Shown in pieces: positions 25,755 to 33,115 of a stretch of 64,000 nucleotides of DNA. Origin of the DNA: an uncultured Spirochaetota bacterium (lineage in GTDB: Bacteria; Spirochaetota; UBA4802; UBA5550); the NCBI GenBank assembly GCA_963827275.1, contig CAWHAA010000002.1, positions 160,001-224,000 on the forward strand, read 5' to 3'. Made by a program: the position numbers and the translations under genes. Within the stretch, counting starts at the first letter, position 1. Every line of letters begins with the position of its first letter. The notes below the pieces were generated by a model that saw only the letters and a list, made by a program, of their open reading frames with translations, was not told the DNA's origin and did not search any database.

Positions 25755-26555
25755 ATGAAGCTTGATTTCACAACTGATGATTTCAATTTTTTCACGTCGC
25801 TCATACGCGAGGCGGGGGACGCCGCGCGGCGAATCCAGAACAGCTTCATCGAGGTTTCTCGGAAGAGCGACGCCACGATCGTCACCCAGGCAGATCTCAT
25901 GGTGCAGGAGGCGCTGGTGCGGGGCATTTCGTCGCGGTATGACGGGCTGCACTACATACACGAGGAGAACAATCCGGGGAACGCGCCGGAGGTCGATGAC
26001 GATACGGTATCGGTGATTATCGATCCGATCGACGGCACCGCCATGTACAGCATGTACCTCCCGGAATGGTGCGTCTCCGTCGGCATCTTCAGGGGGTTCC
26101 GTCCCGTCTTCGGCTTCGTCTACTCCCCCGGCTTCAACATGTTCTTTCATAATGATGGCGTGCACGCCTATCTCAACGGGCGGATGGTGCGCGCGGAAAA
26201 AAACATCGCGGTCGATTCGGAGACGAACATTTTCTGCGCCTCCGAAGCGCAGAATGAATACTGCTTCGAGTTCCGGGGGAAGATCAGGAACCTCGGGTCA
26301 ACCGCGCTGCATGCCTGCCTGGCGGCGGACAGCGCGCGCAACAGGACGCTCGCCTTCATCGGCAGGTCGAACCTCTGGGACTGGGCCGGGGCAATTCCGA
26401 TCATCCTGAACGCGGGCGTCTCCCTGCGCTACATCAACGGGGACGAGATAGATTTCCGCACCGTGATGCGGAATAATTTTCGCTTCCCGGATTATGTCCT
26501 CGCGTACAACGCGGAACATTTTGAATCCGTCAGAAAATTGTTTAGAAAACGATGA
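25755..26555 (+). CDS. Inositol monophosphatase family protein
   Basis: VTQAD, EE, IIDPIDGT, RNLGS, LWDWAG. Confidence 0.9.
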   Translation: MKLDFTTDDFNFFTSLIREAGDAARRIQNSFIEVSRKSDATIVTQADLMVQEALVRGISSRYDGLHYIHEENNPGNAPEVDDDTVSVIIDPIDGTAMYSMYLPEWCVSVGIFRGFRPVFGFVYSPGFNMFFHNDGVHAYLNGRMVRAEKNIAVDSETNIFCASEAQNEYCFEFRGKIRNLGSTALHACLAADSARNRTLAFIGRSNLWDWAGAIPIILNAGVSLRYINGDEIDFRTVMRNNFRFPDYVLAYNAEHFESVRKLFRKR

Positions 26556-26708
26556 GTAGCGTCCTGAAAAAAATATTTTATCTCCGCTGAAATCGCCGCA
26601 CCTCCCGGAAAAAGTGAAAAGTCCGCCTTCCCGATTAAATATGTTGACATTAATAAACACCGGTTTAATTCTGACCTGACGTTGAATTTGATGTTCCAGG
26701 AAAATTGT

Positions 26709-27188
26709 ATGCCACGACCCAGAATTTTTGGTTTTTGCGCAATTGTTGCGGCGCTGATTCTTACGGGATTGTTCGTGTATGCCATCATGATCGTGAAAGG
26801 AGAGCAGGTCGGCGCCGGTCAAGTAGATTTAAACGCCCTGAGCAGTGTCACCTATTACGCGGTAGCGGCCCCGATCGTACTGGTAACGATGGCGGTCCTC
26901 GGGACGGGACTCTGGATCGGCTGGACAATTCTTACAATAAAGGTGGTGCCCCCCATGCCAGAAATAGTCGAGAAAAAAGATTTTTCAAAGATCAAAGCAT
27001 TCATCCTGTGCCTCGTGACCCTCGGGCTGGGCGCCCTTTTTATCTACGGCCTGTATATCAGAAATTTCTGGGCGCTGGCGGTGCCTGCCGCGGTGATCTC
27101 GCTGGTTATTCTCGGCGCCGTGTTCTGGGTCGGGATCGCGATCATCACAACACGCTCGACACTGCCGGAAGAGAAACAACAGTCTTAA
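26709..27188 (+). CDS. Four-TM membrane protein built from two similar two-TM modules (DPM2/PIG-P-like by eye)
   Basis: YAVAAPIVLVTMAVLGTGLWIGWTILT versus FWALAVPAAVISLVILGAVFWVGIAIIT; ends 5 nt before the first GT4. Confidence 0.75.
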   Translation: MPRPRIFGFCAIVAALILTGLFVYAIMIVKGEQVGAGQVDLNALSSVTYYAVAAPIVLVTMAVLGTGLWIGWTILTIKVVPPMPEIVEKKDFSKIKAFILCLVTLGLGALFIYGLYIRNFWALAVPAAVISLVILGAVFWVGIAIITTRSTLPEEKQQS

Positions 27189-27193
27189 TTCCC

Positions 27194-28435
27194 ATGAAGG
27201 TATTGCTGGTATGCTATCGGGGCAGTCCCTTCTGCGGAGGCCTCGGTATTTATCTTTACTATCTCGGCCGGGAACTTGCCAGGCTGGGTGTCGAGGTGGA
27301 TGTCCTTGTCGGGCCTCCCTACCCGGATCCCATGGACGAGTGGGCGACGGTCCACCGGGTCGAGAACCTGAATATCTGGATGGTGAAAACAAAGAAGTTC
27401 GGCTATTCCCGTCTCACCCGCGTTTACTCCATCTGGAATTTTGTCGATTATATCCTGACCCGGTTCCATATTTTTCCTGAAATGGAAACCTTCAGCATGA
27501 GAGCCTTTTTTGCCGCACATACGCTTTTGAAGAAGAAGAGGTACGATATCATCCATGATGTCAACGGCCTCGGCTGGGGGCTCCTGTTGATGAAGGAATT
27601 CGGCATCCCGGTCATATCCACGATACACCATCCCCTCACCAGGGACCGCGACGCCGATCTGACGATGGACGGTACGTTCTGGGACAGGCTTACCACCGTG
27701 CTCTTTTATCCGCTGAATATGCAGCGGTTTGTCATCAAGCGTCTTGACCGAATAATCACGTCATCGGTGGAAGGGATTGATGAGCTGAAGCGGGCCTTCG
27801 GCCTGAAGAAAGAAAAAATCTCCGTCGTGTACAACGGGATGGATGTCGATACCTTCAGGAACACGGGAGAGCAGCGCGACGAGCGCACCATCCTTTTCGT
27901 GGGAAACACCGAGGACCACAAGAAGGGGATCATCTTCCTGCTGGAGGCGCTGGCCGGGCTTCCCGACGATATCCGGCTCACCATCGTCGATGAAGGGCCG
28001 CCGCTGAAAAAGAACGCGATCGGAATTGTCAGAAAGACAGGCGTCGAGAAGCGGGTGAAATTCACCGGCAAGGTGGACCAGGAAACCCTGGTGAGCCTTT
28101 ACAGCAGGGCCACGATCCTGGTCATGTCGTCGCTGTACGAGGGGTTCGGGCTTCCGGCCGCCGAGGCCATGTCGTGCGAAACGCCGGTCGTCGTGACCAG
28201 GGCGGGGGCCCTGCCTGAAGTGGTTGATCCCTCCTGCGGCGTTCTCGTGGAGCCGGGTGATGCAGGGGCCCTCCGTGACGCAATCCTTTCGCTCATCGAC
28301 GATCCTGAATCCAGGGCGCGGATGGGGAAGAACGGAAGAAAAAGGGCCGTGGATAATTTTTCCTGGCCGGTCGCGGCAAAAAATACGCTCGATGTATATT
28401 CGGATGTAATTAAACGATACAGGAGAATAAAATGA
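27194..28435 (+). CDS. Glycosyltransferase family 4 (copy 1)
   Basis: YRGSPFCGGLGIY, TIHHPL, YNG, SLYEGFGLPAAEAMSC; ATG 27194. Confidence 0.93.
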   Translation: MKVLLVCYRGSPFCGGLGIYLYYLGRELARLGVEVDVLVGPPYPDPMDEWATVHRVENLNIWMVKTKKFGYSRLTRVYSIWNFVDYILTRFHIFPEMETFSMRAFFAAHTLLKKKRYDIIHDVNGLGWGLLLMKEFGIPVISTIHHPLTRDRDADLTMDGTFWDRLTTVLFYPLNMQRFVIKRLDRIITSSVEGIDELKRAFGLKKEKISVVYNGMDVDTFRNTGEQRDERTILFVGNTEDHKKGIIFLLEALAGLPDDIRLTIVDEGPPLKKNAIGIVRKTGVEKRVKFTGKVDQETLVSLYSRATILVMSSLYEGFGLPAAEAMSCETPVVVTRAGALPEVVDPSCGVLVEPGDAGALRDAILSLIDDPESRARMGKNGRKRAVDNFSWPVAAKNTLDVYSDVIKRYRRIK

Positions 28436-29670
28436 AAGTATGTCTTTTGAGCTACCGGGGGAATCCCTACTGCGGCGGTCAGGGCATCTATGTCATGTAC
28501 ATCGCGCGGGAGCTGGTCAAGCTCGGCCATGAAGTGCATGTCCTCGCCGGTCCTCCCTATCCCTTCGACGAGGAAGGGGTCGTCATACACCGTGTGAGCA
28601 ACCATAACTATTTCAACAAGAAGACTGACTTCATAAAGCCGCACAAGCCGTTCGCGACGTTCCAGCCGCTGAATTTCTACGAGTTCGTCGCGGCCAAGCT
28701 CGGCATCTTCCCTGAAATAGAGACCTTCTCGGTGCGGGCCTTCGTGAAGCTCAAGGAGCTGATGAAGACGCACAAGTTCGACATCATCCACGACAACCAG
28801 TGCCTCGGGTACGGTTTTCTCCTGATACAGCGCCTCGGGGTGCCGTTCATATCGACGATTCACCATCCCCTCTCCATCGACCGGACGACATGGTTTGAAT
28901 ATCCCTCGGATTTCAATATCAAGATGCGCCGGATCCTCTATTACCCGCTCCTGATGCAGAAGTTCGTGGCCAACAGGATGTACCGGATCATAACCGTATC
29001 ACACGACTCCGCGCTCGAGATCAACAAGGCGTTCGGCGTTAACAGGAAGAAGATCAACGTCATATACAACGGCATGGACTCGAGCCTCTTCTACCCGGTC
29101 AAGGGCATCCAGAAGAAAAAGAACAGCATCATCTTCGTGGGGAACGTTGAGGACCGCAAGAAGGGGATCATCTATCTCCTGAAAGCGATGACCCTGACGA
29201 AGCACCGGGTGACCCTCACCATCGTCGATGGCGGGGCGCCCAACCGGAGCACGGTCCCGCACCTGATCGACAAGCTGGGACTGAACGACCGCGTCACCTT
29301 CACCGGCAAGATCCCGATCGACACGCTGATCCGCCTCTATTCGCGGCACGAGCTGGCGGTGCTCCCCTCGCTCTACGAGGGATTCGGGTTCCCCGCGGCG
29401 GAGGCGATGGCGTGCGAATTGCCGGTCCTGACGACGACCGCGGGCGCCCTTCCGGAGGTGGTGGGCGAGCACATGAAGACCGGGTACATGGTGCCGCCGC
29501 GCGAGGCGGGCATGATCGCCGAAGGGATCGATTTCCTGCTGGACAACCCGGAGCTCAGGAAGCAGATGGGAAAGGCGGCGCGGAAGCGCGTGCTCGAGAT
29601 ATTCACCTGGGAGAACGCCGCCAGGGAGCTGGTCACCATGTACGAAGAGGTGATCAATGCTCACCGTTGA
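28432..29670 (+). CDS. Glycosyltransferase family 4 (copy 2)
   Basis: YRGNPYCGGQGIY, HDNQCLG, TIHHPL, SLYEGFGFPAAEAMAC; overlaps the stop of copy 1. Confidence 0.93.
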   Translation: MKVCLLSYRGNPYCGGQGIYVMYIARELVKLGHEVHVLAGPPYPFDEEGVVIHRVSNHNYFNKKTDFIKPHKPFATFQPLNFYEFVAAKLGIFPEIETFSVRAFVKLKELMKTHKFDIIHDNQCLGYGFLLIQRLGVPFISTIHHPLSIDRTTWFEYPSDFNIKMRRILYYPLLMQKFVANRMYRIITVSHDSALEINKAFGVNRKKINVIYNGMDSSLFYPVKGIQKKKNSIIFVGNVEDRKKGIIYLLKAMTLTKHRVTLTIVDGGAPNRSTVPHLIDKLGLNDRVTFTGKIPIDTLIRLYSRHELAVLPSLYEGFGFPAAEAMACELPVLTTTAGALPEVVGEHMKTGYMVPPREAGMIAEGIDFLLDNPELRKQMGKAARKRVLEIFTWENAARELVTMYEEVINAHR

Positions 29671-30358
29671 TTTTGACCGGCTTGCGGTCAGAGAGGGCGA
29701 CATTGCGCTGGACGCCGGGTGCGGGTTCGGGCGCCATTCGCTCGAGTTCGTCTCCCGCGGCGCGGTCGTGTACAGCATGGACATGGACATGGAGAGCCTC
29801 CGGAAGACCAGGTTCGCGCTCACGGAGATGAAAAAGCACCTCAAGGGCCGTCCGGTGCGCTATTTCGTCAATTCCGGCGACGCCCTGAACCTTCCCTTCA
29901 AGGACGGGTCCTTTGACCGCATCATCTGCTCTGAAGTGATGGAGCATGTGGCGGACGATGACCGCGCGTGCCGGGAGCTGTCCCGCGTCCTGAAAAAAAA
30001 CGGAAGGATCGCGATCACCGTCCCCACGTTTTTCAGCGAACAGGTCTGCGACGCGCTGACATATGAATACTACGCCTCGCCCGGCGGCCATATCAGGCGG
30101 TATTTCCCCGGCCAGCTCGCGGACATGATGCGGCGAAACGGGCTCGAAGTATACGGCATCGGCTTCAAGCATTCCTTCCATACGATCTGGTGGATGATCC
30201 GGAGCGTCGTCGGCCTCCATCTGGGCGATCATCCCATAACAAAGGCATACCACAGGTTTCTCCACCTCGGGCTCTATTCGAAGTTCATGCGGAGAGCCGA
30301 ATCTTTTTTCGATTATTTTTTCCCGAAGAGCGTGGTCGTGTACGCCTGGAAAAAATAG
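29657..30358 (+). CDS. Class I SAM-dependent methyltransferase (type 11)
   Basis: LDAGCGFGRH, GDALNLPF.DGSFD, SEVMEH, GGHIRRY. Confidence 0.93.
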   Translation: MLTVDFDRLAVREGDIALDAGCGFGRHSLEFVSRGAVVYSMDMDMESLRKTRFALTEMKKHLKGRPVRYFVNSGDALNLPFKDGSFDRIICSEVMEHVADDDRACRELSRVLKKNGRIAITVPTFFSEQVCDALTYEYYASPGGHIRRYFPGQLADMMRRNGLEVYGIGFKHSFHTIWWMIRSVVGLHLGDHPITKAYHRFLHLGLYSKFMRRAESFFDYFFPKSVVVYAWKK

Positions 30359-30483: not shown

Positions 30484-33115
30484 ATGAAACAATTAATAGT
30501 GATACTGTGCGCCTTCCTGCTCGCGGGGATCGGCGCCGGCGCAGCGACCTACCGTGGAAACAAGATAAACATGTTCGGCAACTCGCCCGAATCGCTGGGA
30601 AGGGGCGGAACGGGCGTGGCGTCATCCGGCGCCGAGCTGCTGTACCTGAACCCCGCCGCGATAGCCGATGCAGAGCGCATCGGCGCCGGGCTCCAGTTCG
30701 GCTCCCTGCCGCTGCCGACGCGGTTCTATGACGGCGGGCTCTCCCTTGCGGTGCCAAGCTCCTACGGGGTGTTCGGCGCTTCGTTCAGGTATATGAATTT
30801 TCCGGACCGCTTCGACTGGAAGGAAGGCTACAGCGTGAGCGTGGGCAACGCCCGCGACCTGACGAGGCGCCTTCTGCTCGGGTTTTCGCTGAGCTTCCTG
30901 TACGCGCACGACGCGGGCGACGTCGTATTACGCGGGCGGCAACATCGGGTTCATTTACAAGTTCCCGAGCACGGGAAACAGGTACGGCTTCTGCCTCCTT
31001 GACCCGAAGATAGGGCTCGCGCTGCATTTCGGGTACCCGTTCGGCACAAGCCCCCGCTATTCGGACATGAACGACGTGACCCTCGGGTATACGTTTAAAT
31101 TTTTCAGCATCCCTCATTTCAGCATCGCGTGGTACAATGACTTCACGGTCCTGAATTACCGTGAGTTCCCGGTGAAGTTCGGGCTCGAATCGGTGATATA
31201 CGATATCGTGGTGGTCAGGGGCGGGTTTGTGGTGCCGCACGCCTACAATGAGGGGACCTTCACCACGGGCATCGGCGTGCGGCTCAACACCGACAGCTTT
31301 ACGGGTTCGTTGAATTATTCGATAAATTTCTATCCGGGAATAACAATGACGCATTATCTCGGGGTGAATGTTGAAATCGGCAGGCTGGACCGCGAGCCGC
31401 CTGAGACCGCGATACGGCCCGACAAGGAGCAGATTTCCCCGAACCATGACGGCCTCAAGGACTACGTGCTGTTCCATCTCACCGTAAACGACTGGAGCAG
31501 GATCAAGGGATGGAAGCTCCAGGTCCTTGATGCCGGCGGCCAGATGGTCAAGGATTACTCGATATCCGAACGCGACCTTTCTGACCGGCTGACGGCGCAG
31601 GAATTTTTCAAACGTCTCTTTCAAAAACGCGAGTCGATGGTGGTGCCCGAAAAGGTAATCTGGGACGGGACGGACATGAAGGGGAAGAACGTGCCGGACG
31701 GCGTCTATTCATTTACGTTCAACGCATGGGACGCGCGCGACAACATAGCGGCATCTAAATCGGGGACCGTGGTAATCGATACCACGCCCCCCGAGATACT
31801 GCTGGACGGCAGCGAAGACCTTTTCTCGCCCAACGGCGACGGAAGGAAGGATGCATATGTGATCGGGCAGAGGATAAAATGCTCGCAGGACGATGAATGG
31901 ACCGCCGGATTCAGGGACCCGGCCGGGAACACCGTGAAAAAATTTAACTGGGCCGGCCCGGCGGTGCCACCCCGCGTGGTCTGGAACGGGAAGGATGATT
32001 CGGGAGCTGACGCGCCGGAAGGGCTTTACACTTATTTCATAACCTGCACCGACAAGGCAGGCAACAGCGCACACGCCGAGATCCGCGAGATCACCCTTAC
32101 CAGAAAATATGAAATCGCCGACATCACCCTCTCCGGTGAGTTCTTTTCATTCGCCCGGGACAAGTCCCTGAACCTGTTCCCGGCGCTCTCAAGCGCCTAC
32201 GGCCTCACCGAGTGGAAGGTGGTCATCCAGAACCAGAAGCTGAAAATCCTGAAAGAGATAACAGGCGCGGAACAGGTCCCGCGCATGATACCGTATGACT
32301 GCCTGGACAGCGACGGCTCGCGCCTTGCGGACGGAGTGTACTACGCGAGCCTCGCCGCCTCGTATAAAAGCGGCAATGCGCCCGAGTCATTTAAAAAAAT
32401 GTTCGTGATTGACAGCACTCCCCCCCGGCTCGCCGTTTCCCACTCCCCCGGGCTTTTTTCGCCCGACGGCGACCGCGAAAACGATATGCTGAAGATCCAG
32501 GCGAAGGTACGGGACGATACCGCCATACAGACCTGGCGGATAACGATATACGCTTCCTCGGGTGAGGTCTTCAAGACCTTTTCCGGCAAGGGTCCGGTCC
32601 CGGAGGAGATCATGTGGGACGGACTCGGGGACAATCTGGATATTGTCGAGTCCGCAGCGGATTATAAAATTGTCCTTGAAGCGACGGACGCGGCGGGCAA
32701 CAGCGGCAGCTCCGACCCTGACCGGCTCGAGGTGGACGTGCTCGTGCTGGTGACGGAGCGGGGACTGAAAATACGCATCAGCAACATCGAGTTCCCGTTC
32801 GGCACCGACGAGATCAAGTACCGCGGCCGGTTGATCCTTGACCGCGTGTTCCAGATACTTCAGAAATATGAAAACTATGATGTCCTCATAGAGGGCCATA
32901 CGGACGATATCGGCAAGGAGGAGTACAACCTCGAGCTGTCCGAGCGGCGGGCGAAAGCGGTCAATGATTTTCTTGCCGGCAGGGGAATACGGATCGACCG
33001 GCTGTCGTTTGTCGGGATGGGCGAGACGGTCCCCCTCTATCCGAACATCAATGATGAAAACAGGAGGCGCAACCGCAGGGTTGAATTCATGCTGATAAAA
33101 AAGGAACGGGAATGA
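30484..33115 (+). CDS. Exported multidomain protein: N-terminal beta-barrel-like region, FlgD-Ig-like repeats, C-terminal OmpA domain; +1 frameshift near 30918
   Basis: LGRGG..LYLNPA N-terminus; three (I/F)SP(N/D)xDG...WDG/WNG repeats; IEGHTD...NLELSERRA...NRRVEF; frames 30484 and 31067 join at GCGGGCGACGTCG. Confidence 0.85.

Follow-up and report, generated by a model that had tools for sequence, protein, structure and literature searches.

A spirochaete operon linking a tandem-hairpin membrane protein, probably akin to DPM2 and PIG-P, to ManT-like glycosyltransferases and a methyltransferase

The four-gene operon and its conservation

The DNA analysed here (the window) is a stretch of 64,000 nucleotides (nt) from an uncultured Spirochaetota bacterium (GenBank assembly GCA_963827275.1, contig CAWHAA010000002.1, positions 160,001 to 224,000). 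Its subject is a group of four genes at 26709-30358, all on the + strand, which form one operon and a conserved module. The first gene (26709..27188) encodes a four-helix membrane protein of 159 amino acids (aa), a tandem duplication of a helical hairpin that is placed below, with qualification, in the DPM2/PIG-P/PIG-Y superfamily. It is followed after 5 nt by GT4a (27194..28435, 413 aa), a ManT-like retaining glycosyltransferase of family 4 (GT4) and the more divergent of two paralogues. The frame of GT4a overlaps by 4 nt that of GT4b (28432..29670, 412 aa), a ManT orthologue and predicted alpha-(1->4)-mannosyltransferase, and this in turn overlaps by 14 nt the gene for a S-adenosylmethionine-dependent methyltransferase (29657..30358, 233 aa), an orthologue of pMeT3, itself a putative 3-O-methyltransferase of methylmannose polysaccharide (MMP). 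A gene of the inositol monophosphatase (IMPase) family lies on the same strand, 153 nt upstream of the membrane gene. An earlier reading of this DNA, made without database searches (the sequence-only reading), had described the gene order, the 5-nt gap, the overlaps and the upstream IMPase gene, and all of these are present at the positions it gave.

Synteny was surveyed in the best 80 of 90 genome loci with the tandem form of the hairpin gene and in the best 80 of 426 metagenome loci with a single-hairpin form, the latter dominated by one lineage. A ManT-like GT4 follows the hairpin gene in all 78 tandem loci with room for it, and the methyltransferase is present in 62 of 64, both exceptions being Syntrophomonadaceae. 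In the single-hairpin loci a ManT-like GT4 lies no more than 500 nt from the hairpin gene in 71 of the 75 with room. The linkage of the hairpin to GT4s and a methyltransferase, on which the sequence-only reading was built, is thus conserved. Its proposal of one membrane module for each GT4 fails: single-hairpin genes precede two GT4s in 28 of the 30 loci that reach the methyltransferase (the other 2 have one), and the tandem-hairpin locus L059 has just one GT4, so one hairpin per GT4 is not the rule. A quick tree of the GT4s, with long outgroup branches, does not decide on orthology between the first GT4 of one lineage and that of the other.

Within the phylum, a strong hairpin match was found in 42 of 301 genomes, all of them in the order of this spirochaete (42/51), with one weak match outside it. 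A pMeT3 orthologue occurs in 41 of the 301 genomes, all among the 42 that bear the hairpin; the other 259 have none. Single-hairpin proteins with a named source are from Chloroflexota, Myxococcota, Deltaproteobacteria and Thermodesulfobacteriota, and in one lineage the hairpin is naturally fused to a methyltransferase (P0143; six of seven cluster members have 360 aa). In most metagenome loci the single hairpin is preceded by a UbiE-like second methyltransferase (L134:5163-6002), which is 55% identical to the fused form. Other recurrent neighbours of the tandem form are a zinc-dependent dehydrogenase gene directly upstream in 26 of 80 loci (L033:6990-7964) and an O-methyltransferase gene downstream in 14 of 80 (L049:11736-12686).

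A survey of Bacillota found the hairpin in one of 201 genomes, the survey's own centre genome. Bacillota bins (Syntrophomonadaceae and one unassigned; L054, L067, L073, L079; L206, L207) carry the hairpin and GT4a. The single Bacillota GT4a included in the tree falls within the spirochaete clade, and two of the bins have, at another position, a more distantly related pair of ManT and methyltransferase genes. Either transfer or mis-binning is suggested as the explanation.

The membrane protein and its relatives

The AlphaFold2 model of the 159-aa protein (mean predicted local distance difference test score 75, predicted template-modelling score 0.57) has helices at residues 3-29, 46-76, 92-117 and 120-151. 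These fall into two two-helix hairpins of the kind that marks the superfamily (a transmembrane helix pair, about 70-90 residues). One half aligns with the other in hhalign (97.4%, E 9.5e-12), and a single-hairpin profile picks up each of them (E 6e-10 and 6e-16). The protein is therefore an internal duplication, and the two similar two-helix modules of the sequence-only reading are borne out. Homologues are mostly 159 aa long among close relatives, and the named ones come from uncultured Spirochaetota. Between the hairpins lies a lysine-rich linker (residues 77-96; 26937..26996, + strand), in which conservation across 120 homologues reaches 85% or more at most positions; the loop at residues 30-47, by contrast, is variable. 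The linker is predicted, from charge, to lie on the cytoplasmic side, where it would be a candidate docking surface.

Three alignments were central to placing the protein. A1 holds the best 120 of its 325 homologues. A search of 1.84 billion representatives gave 51 matches, many of them single-hairpin proteins of 65-140 residues, and A3 holds 108 such bacterial proteins (a seed and 107 of the best 120 of 5,379 matches). One of the 51 matches, P0167, opened the way to a large family, in which the three members with a taxon name are all Bathyarchaeia. A4 holds 104 of these archaeal-type hairpins, 103 of the best 120 matches together with P0172, and includes no bacterial sequence. Hairpin 1 of the spirochaete protein (residues 3-79; 26715..26945, + strand) reaches hhalign 99.4% to A3 and 97.3% to A4, and its long, variable inter-helix loop resembles that of the archaeal family. 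Hairpin 2 (residues 92-151; 26982..27161, + strand) reaches 99.2% to A3 and 31.8% to A4; its short loop resembles the bacterial single-hairpin proteins. Other tandem-hairpin proteins carry two short-loop copies (P0131, P0132, P0136, P0139, P0140, P0145, P0146, P0176-P0185) and apparently represent a duplication separate from the spirochaete form.

Taken alone, the 159-aa protein scores insignificantly against the relevant Pfam families. PIG-P is listed at residues 114-150 with an E value of 1.4 (9.2 against a cut-off of 39.3 bits) and DPM2 at residues 49-75 with 2.3 (9.0 against 27.3 bits). These are two of only four Pfam families listed at E≤10, and they fall where the sequence-only reading had placed a likeness to each. 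Since it stays below all the cut-offs, the protein is not a member of PF08510 (PIG-P), PF07297 (DPM2) or PF15159 (PIG-Y) as curated, and the claim of kinship is carried by the family-level evidence.

At that level PIG-P gives the best E value in A1, A3 and A4. In A1, at E≤10, PIG-P is matched by 85 of 120 members (best 2.5e-6), Holin-X by 79, PIG-Y by 38 and DPM2 by 35. In A3, at E≤1, the corresponding numbers out of 108 are 96 for DUF4131, 94 for Holin-X and 86 for PIG-P. All 104 members of A4 match PIG-P at E≤0.01 (Holin-X 95, DPM2 39), and here the lead of PIG-P amounts to four orders of magnitude. One A4 sequence, P0357, passes the PIG-P cut-off (40.6 against 39.3 bits; one of 20 hand-picked archaeal-type members), so that a specific link through an intermediate family that reaches a Pfam cut-off exists by way of A4. 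Another hand-picked archaeal-type sequence, P0410, reaches 27.2 of the 27.3 bits required for DPM2, aligned nearly end to end.

The step from the archaeal family to the bacterial proteins was examined in the reverse direction. When the A4 profile was run against 41,009 six-frame open reading frames of the genome, the 159-aa frame ranked first (38 bits, E 2.7e-9) and the next reached 17.5 bits. The same profile scored at least 20 bits with 119 of 120 members of A1, 74 of 108 members of A3 and none of 57 unrelated small membrane proteins. These controls were picked by eye: 45 of 46 frames from 20 windows of the genome, the 46th being the hairpin gene, and a further 12 chosen among 38 in related loci. 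PIG-P, DPM2 and PIG-Y were listed for none of the 57 at E≤1 (for nine of them among the best five families only). Profile-profile comparison by hhalign gave 98.6% for A4 with A3, 97.2% for A1 with A4 and 98.7% for A1 with A3. A search of the genome for the PIG-P family at E≤10 was uninformative, as it also matched 11 of 14 control genomes.

In the literature DPM2, PIGP and PIGY are called mutually homologous (PMC13478489), and DPM2/PIGP is dated as a duplication of Asgard origin that preceded the last eukaryotic common ancestor (PMC12872463). On these profile comparisons the hairpin protein is very probably kin to the DPM2/PIG-P/PIG-Y superfamily. The resemblance proposed in the sequence-only reading is supported to that extent, through A4, whereas its assignment of module 1 to DPM2 and module 2 to PIG-P is not: the halves duplicate one unit, and PIG-P matches module 1 in P0115 and module 2 in P0001. 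The profiles thus describe a duplicated superfamily member, not a fusion of DPM2 with PIG-P. The Joint Genome Institute names 'PQ loop repeat' and 'transcriptional regulator' for hairpin proteins were set aside; the Pfam tables examined gave no matching family.

Structure comparison identified no relative. Foldseek of the 159-aa model against the PDB gave nothing at E≤0.001, VIA-align found generic helical hairpins only (Z≤8.1), and sequence searches of the PDB gave no matches with A1 and eight with alignment A2, all at E≥0.5. Experimental structures are reported as lacking for the eukaryotic glycosylphosphatidylinositol N-acetylglucosaminyltransferase (GPI-GnT) in one source of 2024 (10.1101/2024.10.01.615885) and for the DPM complex in one of 2026 (PMC13478489), so a suitable target is probably absent from the structure libraries. 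The ESM Atlas returned a spirochaete cluster for the 159-aa protein and, for a single-hairpin protein, clusters of archaeal proteins that scored below 0.9; both were treated as leads only. Complex prediction for GT4a, GT4b and the hairpin protein gave 0.46, both partner-replaced controls gave 0.00 and the GT4a-replaced control 0.50; this result was counted neither way on binding.

The sole archaeal-type locus seen (L201:2962-4594), on a contig of a viral collection, has the hairpin behind DUF1616 and nucleotidyltransferase genes on the same strand and not behind a GT4. The phage genes beside it we take to be terminase-like. No archaeal-type hairpin locus was found in plasmids and no bacterial hairpin in viral contigs.

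The glycosyltransferases and the methyltransferase

The closest PDB match of GT4b is 7QSG (E 2e-73 over residues 1-408), which is ManT, described as the alpha-(1->4)-mannosyltransferase of mycobacterial MMP (PMC9883506). The next match is at 2e-28, and MshA is at 3e-19. GT4b is 38% and GT4a 34% identical to the ManT of Nonomuraea, and the two paralogues are 46% identical to each other. Gly15, His145, Lys244, Glu316 and Glu324 are invariant in 58 GT4a sequences, as are Gly15, His144, Lys244, Glu316 and Glu324 in 58 GT4b sequences. Counted on the GT4b-7QSG alignment, these correspond to Gly15, His142, Lys240, Glu313 and Glu321 of ManT.

Along its whole length the methyltransferase shares 40% identity with the gene that comes immediately behind manT in an MMP cluster of Nonomuraea (L083; E 3e-57); the next match in the spirochaete genome is at 5e-11. 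The third gene of the cluster matches MmpH (7QSJ) with an E value of 7e-121. Because the Nonomuraea counterpart sits directly after manT, the methyltransferase was assigned as a pMeT3 orthologue. An assignment to MeT1 was dropped, as no MeT1 structure was among the PDB matches and the gene order points to pMeT3. By these comparisons the GT4s and the methyltransferase are ManT and pMeT3 orthologues in the same gene order, and a methylmannose product of the operon is fairly likely. Two further matches in the genome, a GDP-mannose pyrophosphorylase-like gene (E 2e-99) and an isomerase-like domain apart from it, both fall short of the full-length cut-off.

The remaining MMP genes were not recovered. 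A tblastn search with MmpH found nothing in this genome (E≤1e-3) and nothing in 61 genomes of the order, and the same was true of MeT1; each search used one query and no positive-control genome. Neither gave a match in the 80 single-hairpin loci. The MeT1 query itself is one that we presume to be MeT1 from its position in the cluster. In the mycobacterial pathway, as described in PMC9883506, ManT requires a primer of at least three mannoses and cannot start from mono- or dimannosides; MmpH provides that primer by cutting old MMP chains, and the free reducing end is capped by MeT1. Some source of primer is needed here too, and as the recycling hydrolase was not found it must come from elsewhere.

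A third ManT-like GT4 (G000:C8:439017-440234; L164:7940-9238), 51% identical to GT4b, lies elsewhere in the genome directly behind a gene for a hexapeptide-repeat acyltransferase (L164:7326-8003). This locus may acylate or extend the same glycan.

Proposed role, alternatives and known systems

Taken together, we read the operon as an inner-membrane variant of the MMP pathway, in which the hairpin protein docks the ManT-like GT4s and a 3-O-methylmannose glycan is built on a membrane-bound acceptor; we give this reading a probability of roughly 0.55. The hairpins and the conserved cytoplasmic linker would dock and orient the GT4s, as has been modelled for PIG-P, PIG-Y and DPM2 with PIG-A. In the predicted models PIGP, PIGY and DPM2 are V-shaped hairpins that seat PIG-A, and it is PIGP and PIGY that set its orientation (PMC12182360; 10.1101/2024.10.01.615885). 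By this analogy docking of the GT4s by the hairpins is probable, and the two fused copies would replace the homo-oligomer that single-hairpin relatives would form. ManT itself is stabilised by detergent (PMC9883506). GT4b would add alpha-(1->4)-linked mannose from GDP-mannose and the methyltransferase would 3-O-methylate it. GT4a would make or extend a short primer, and its acceptor, in the simplest case a membrane lipid, would already have its reducing end blocked, so that neither the recycling hydrolase nor the 1-O-methyl cap would be necessary. A lipid as the carrier is the weakest step; we put it at a little under an even chance.

Several observations weigh against this reading. The conserved catalytic residues are general features of GT4 enzymes, identity to ManT is only 34-38%, and Asp293 of ManT, the proposed guanine contact, is not kept in register on the alignment; the donor and the linkage are for these reasons predictions. 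For pMeT3 itself the published account gives no demonstrated activity (PMC9883506). As MmpH and MeT1 were each sought with one query and no positive-control genome, a divergent or unrelated hydrolase may exist. The hairpin gene is lacking from the 17-kb locus of the third ManT-like GT4. Three single-hairpin loci (L084-L086) have no GT4 nearby, so their hairpin may act in trans or with other partners; one more locus has none in reach. The neighbours in L084-L086 are presumably folate/queuosine-type genes. The genomes are related, so the linkage counts are not independent. On the side of kinship, no bacterial member above the Pfam cut-off was seen (the best, a spirochaete homologue, reached 27.8 of 39.3 bits), and A4 was grown from a seed picked for matching the 159-aa query.

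The alternative that survives best is a soluble, cytoplasmic MMP-like polymer, with the hairpin merely stabilising or regulating the GT4s as DPM2 does and with priming and capping carried out by unrelated enzymes or absent. It has a precedent in that MMP is an intracellular polymer although ManT activity is found in membranes (PMC9883506). Removal of DPM2 from an AlphaFold3 model leaves the orientation of PIG-A unchanged (PMC12182360), and the extra methyltransferases found at many loci (downstream in the 14 of 80 tandem loci, upstream of most single hairpins) could cap the reducing end. The upstream methyltransferase, however, lacks a close orthologue in this genome (best match about 30% over 110 residues), and MeT1 and MmpH are unmatched in it; ManT would still need its primer. 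We regard a soluble polymer as unlikely.

It is quite improbable that the likeness to PIG-P and DPM2 reflects only transmembrane composition, the hairpin being Holin-X-like or unrelated and exporting the product or forming a pore instead of docking enzymes. The case for it lies in Holin-X (PF07332), which matches most members of A1, A3 and A4 in the numbers given above, much as DUF4131 does in A3. Holin-X also has the better E value for the 159-aa protein alone (0.009; 16.5 against a cut-off of 28.4 bits) and comes as close as 26.8 of 28.4 bits. An older PIG-P model was moreover singled out for false matches through transmembrane helices (PMC2912341), and the bacterial members all stay below the cut-off. 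Against this, PIG-P has the best E value in all three alignments, and the archaeal match spans about 90 profile positions, beyond the helices into the tail. All three mutually homologous subunits appear among the matches and none was listed for the 57 controls, and an archaeal origin of DPM2/PIGP has been published (PMC12872463).

The sequence-only reading had gone further and proposed a GPI-GnT-like complex whose GT4s act on inositol or phosphatidylinositol, served by the IMPase, to give a methylated inositol glycolipid. The IMPase-family phosphatase (25755..26555, + strand, 266 aa; Pfam Inositol_P, E 3e-26) reaches no equivalog cut-off of NCBIfam, its best model being CysQ with 78 of 229 bits. 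It adjoins the hairpin gene in 17 of the 71 tandem loci with room, mostly in the closest relatives, and in none of the 80 single-hairpin loci; the IMPase is probably an incidental neighbour outside the unit. Between it and the operon lies a TTGACA box (26644..26649, + strand), 60 nt upstream of the membrane gene and a candidate -35 element of the operon promoter. The box is present here and in 15 of the 22 loci compared, four of these without an IMPase gene upstream; a sigma-70 scan called no promoter before the operon, and an RNA search listed no match. In close relatives the box (upstream regions of L001-L037) is flanked by a near-palindromic AT-rich stretch, which could be an operator.

A search for inositol-1-phosphate synthase found none in this genome, which is 92% complete, or in four congeners. 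Among the genomes covered by both surveys, 17 of the 33 that bear the hairpin gave no synthase and 16 have one, as do five of seven genomes without the hairpin. Neither GT4 had the PIGA domain (PF08288) among its matches at E≤10, and the domain had no match in the genome, with a weak match in one of 14 control genomes; PIG-C, PIG-Q and PIG-H had none either, nor any in the 14 control genomes. An inositol product is very improbable: the kinship of the hairpin to GPI-GnT subunits, the rank of MshA as top NCBIfam model for GT4a (126 of 462 bits), the description of MshA and PimA as the closest structural relatives of ManT (PMC9883506), and the 16 genomes with a synthase, along with conceivable uptake of inositol, speak for it, yet ManT beats MshA by more than 50 orders of magnitude, the GT4s are to be read as orthologues of ManT and not of PIG-A, MshA or PimA, no PIGA domain was found, and a conserved box separates a seldom adjacent IMPase from an operon whose genome yielded no synthase. 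The hairpin kinship and the tie to GT4s are what stands of the sequence-only reading as a whole; the DPM2 and PIG-P split, the one-to-one stoichiometry and the inositol do not. On the other side of the operon an outer-membrane-type gene is split over two frames (30484-31002 and 31067-33115), where a relative has a single frame of 876 aa (L007:3821-6451); this is probably a frameshift or a sequencing error.

A bolder form of the membrane-bound reading is that these operons keep the ancestral unit of the GPI-GnT core, a hairpin oligomer with a GT4 on the cytoplasmic face, and build a lipid-linked 3-O-methylmannan from scratch, in place of the MmpH/MeT1 route. Eukaryotes would then have turned the hairpin oligomer into the PIG-P/PIG-Y/DPM2 trimer beneath PIG-A. 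We consider this somewhat unlikely; if true, it would mean a glycolipid not described before and a compact system for studying the role of the hairpin and the start of a chain without a pre-existing one.

Archaeal accessory genes had not been found as of 2008 (PMC2446393), and an Asgard origin of GPI-GnT has since been inferred (PMC12338589). The working mode of the small GPI-GnT subunits is stated to be unclear (PMC12182360). A literature search, with most subscription journals outside its coverage, turned up no account of DPM2/PIG-P-like proteins in bacteria and none of this operon. The archaeal relatives of DPM2 and PIG-P have no partner in the literature covered, and the bacterial branch, which nearly always precedes a GT4, offers the prokaryotic family a candidate one; the linkage suggests a role for its prokaryotic members. 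The operon is a four-gene test system for the function of the hairpin subunit. It would also extend ManT/pMeT3 chemistry to an order of spirochaetes, with 41 of the 51 genomes sampled, and in a form that dispenses with the recycling hydrolase.

Among known systems, the nearest on the enzyme side is the MMP cluster manT-pmeT3-mmpH-meT1 of M. hassiacum (7QSG, 7QSJ; PMC9883506). The order ManT to pMeT3, the overlapping frames and the catalytic Gly, His, Lys and two Glu are shared. It differs in having one ManT where there are two paralogues here, and in lacking the hairpin gene in front. ManT and pMeT3 are represented in the spirochaete operon at 34-40% identity, whereas MmpH and MeT1 were not found in the 61 genomes of the order. 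Holin-X gives frequent weak profile matches over the same helices, but its best scores lie below those of PIG-P and always below its own cut-off (the 26.8 bits being from an archaeal member), and the genes that recur beside the hairpin include none for phage or lysis functions. The archaeal hairpin family (Bathyarchaeia, often named 'transcriptional regulator') aligns at hhalign 97-99% to the bacterial profiles and shares its long loop with hairpin 1; it differs in having a single hairpin and a charged tail. DPM2, PIG-P and PIG-Y share with the spirochaete protein the two-helix hairpin and, in consensus, the aromatic-Ala-x-Pro that opens helix 2. The eukaryotic subunits are tied to the GT4 PIG-A, and the hairpin here is likewise tied to a GT4. 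There, however, three different subunits take the place of two copies of one unit in one chain, and PIG-A has the PIGA domain, which the ManT-like GT4s lack. The operon thus resembles the GPI-GnT core in architecture yet is not one; the archaeal link to DPM2/PIG-P is already published.

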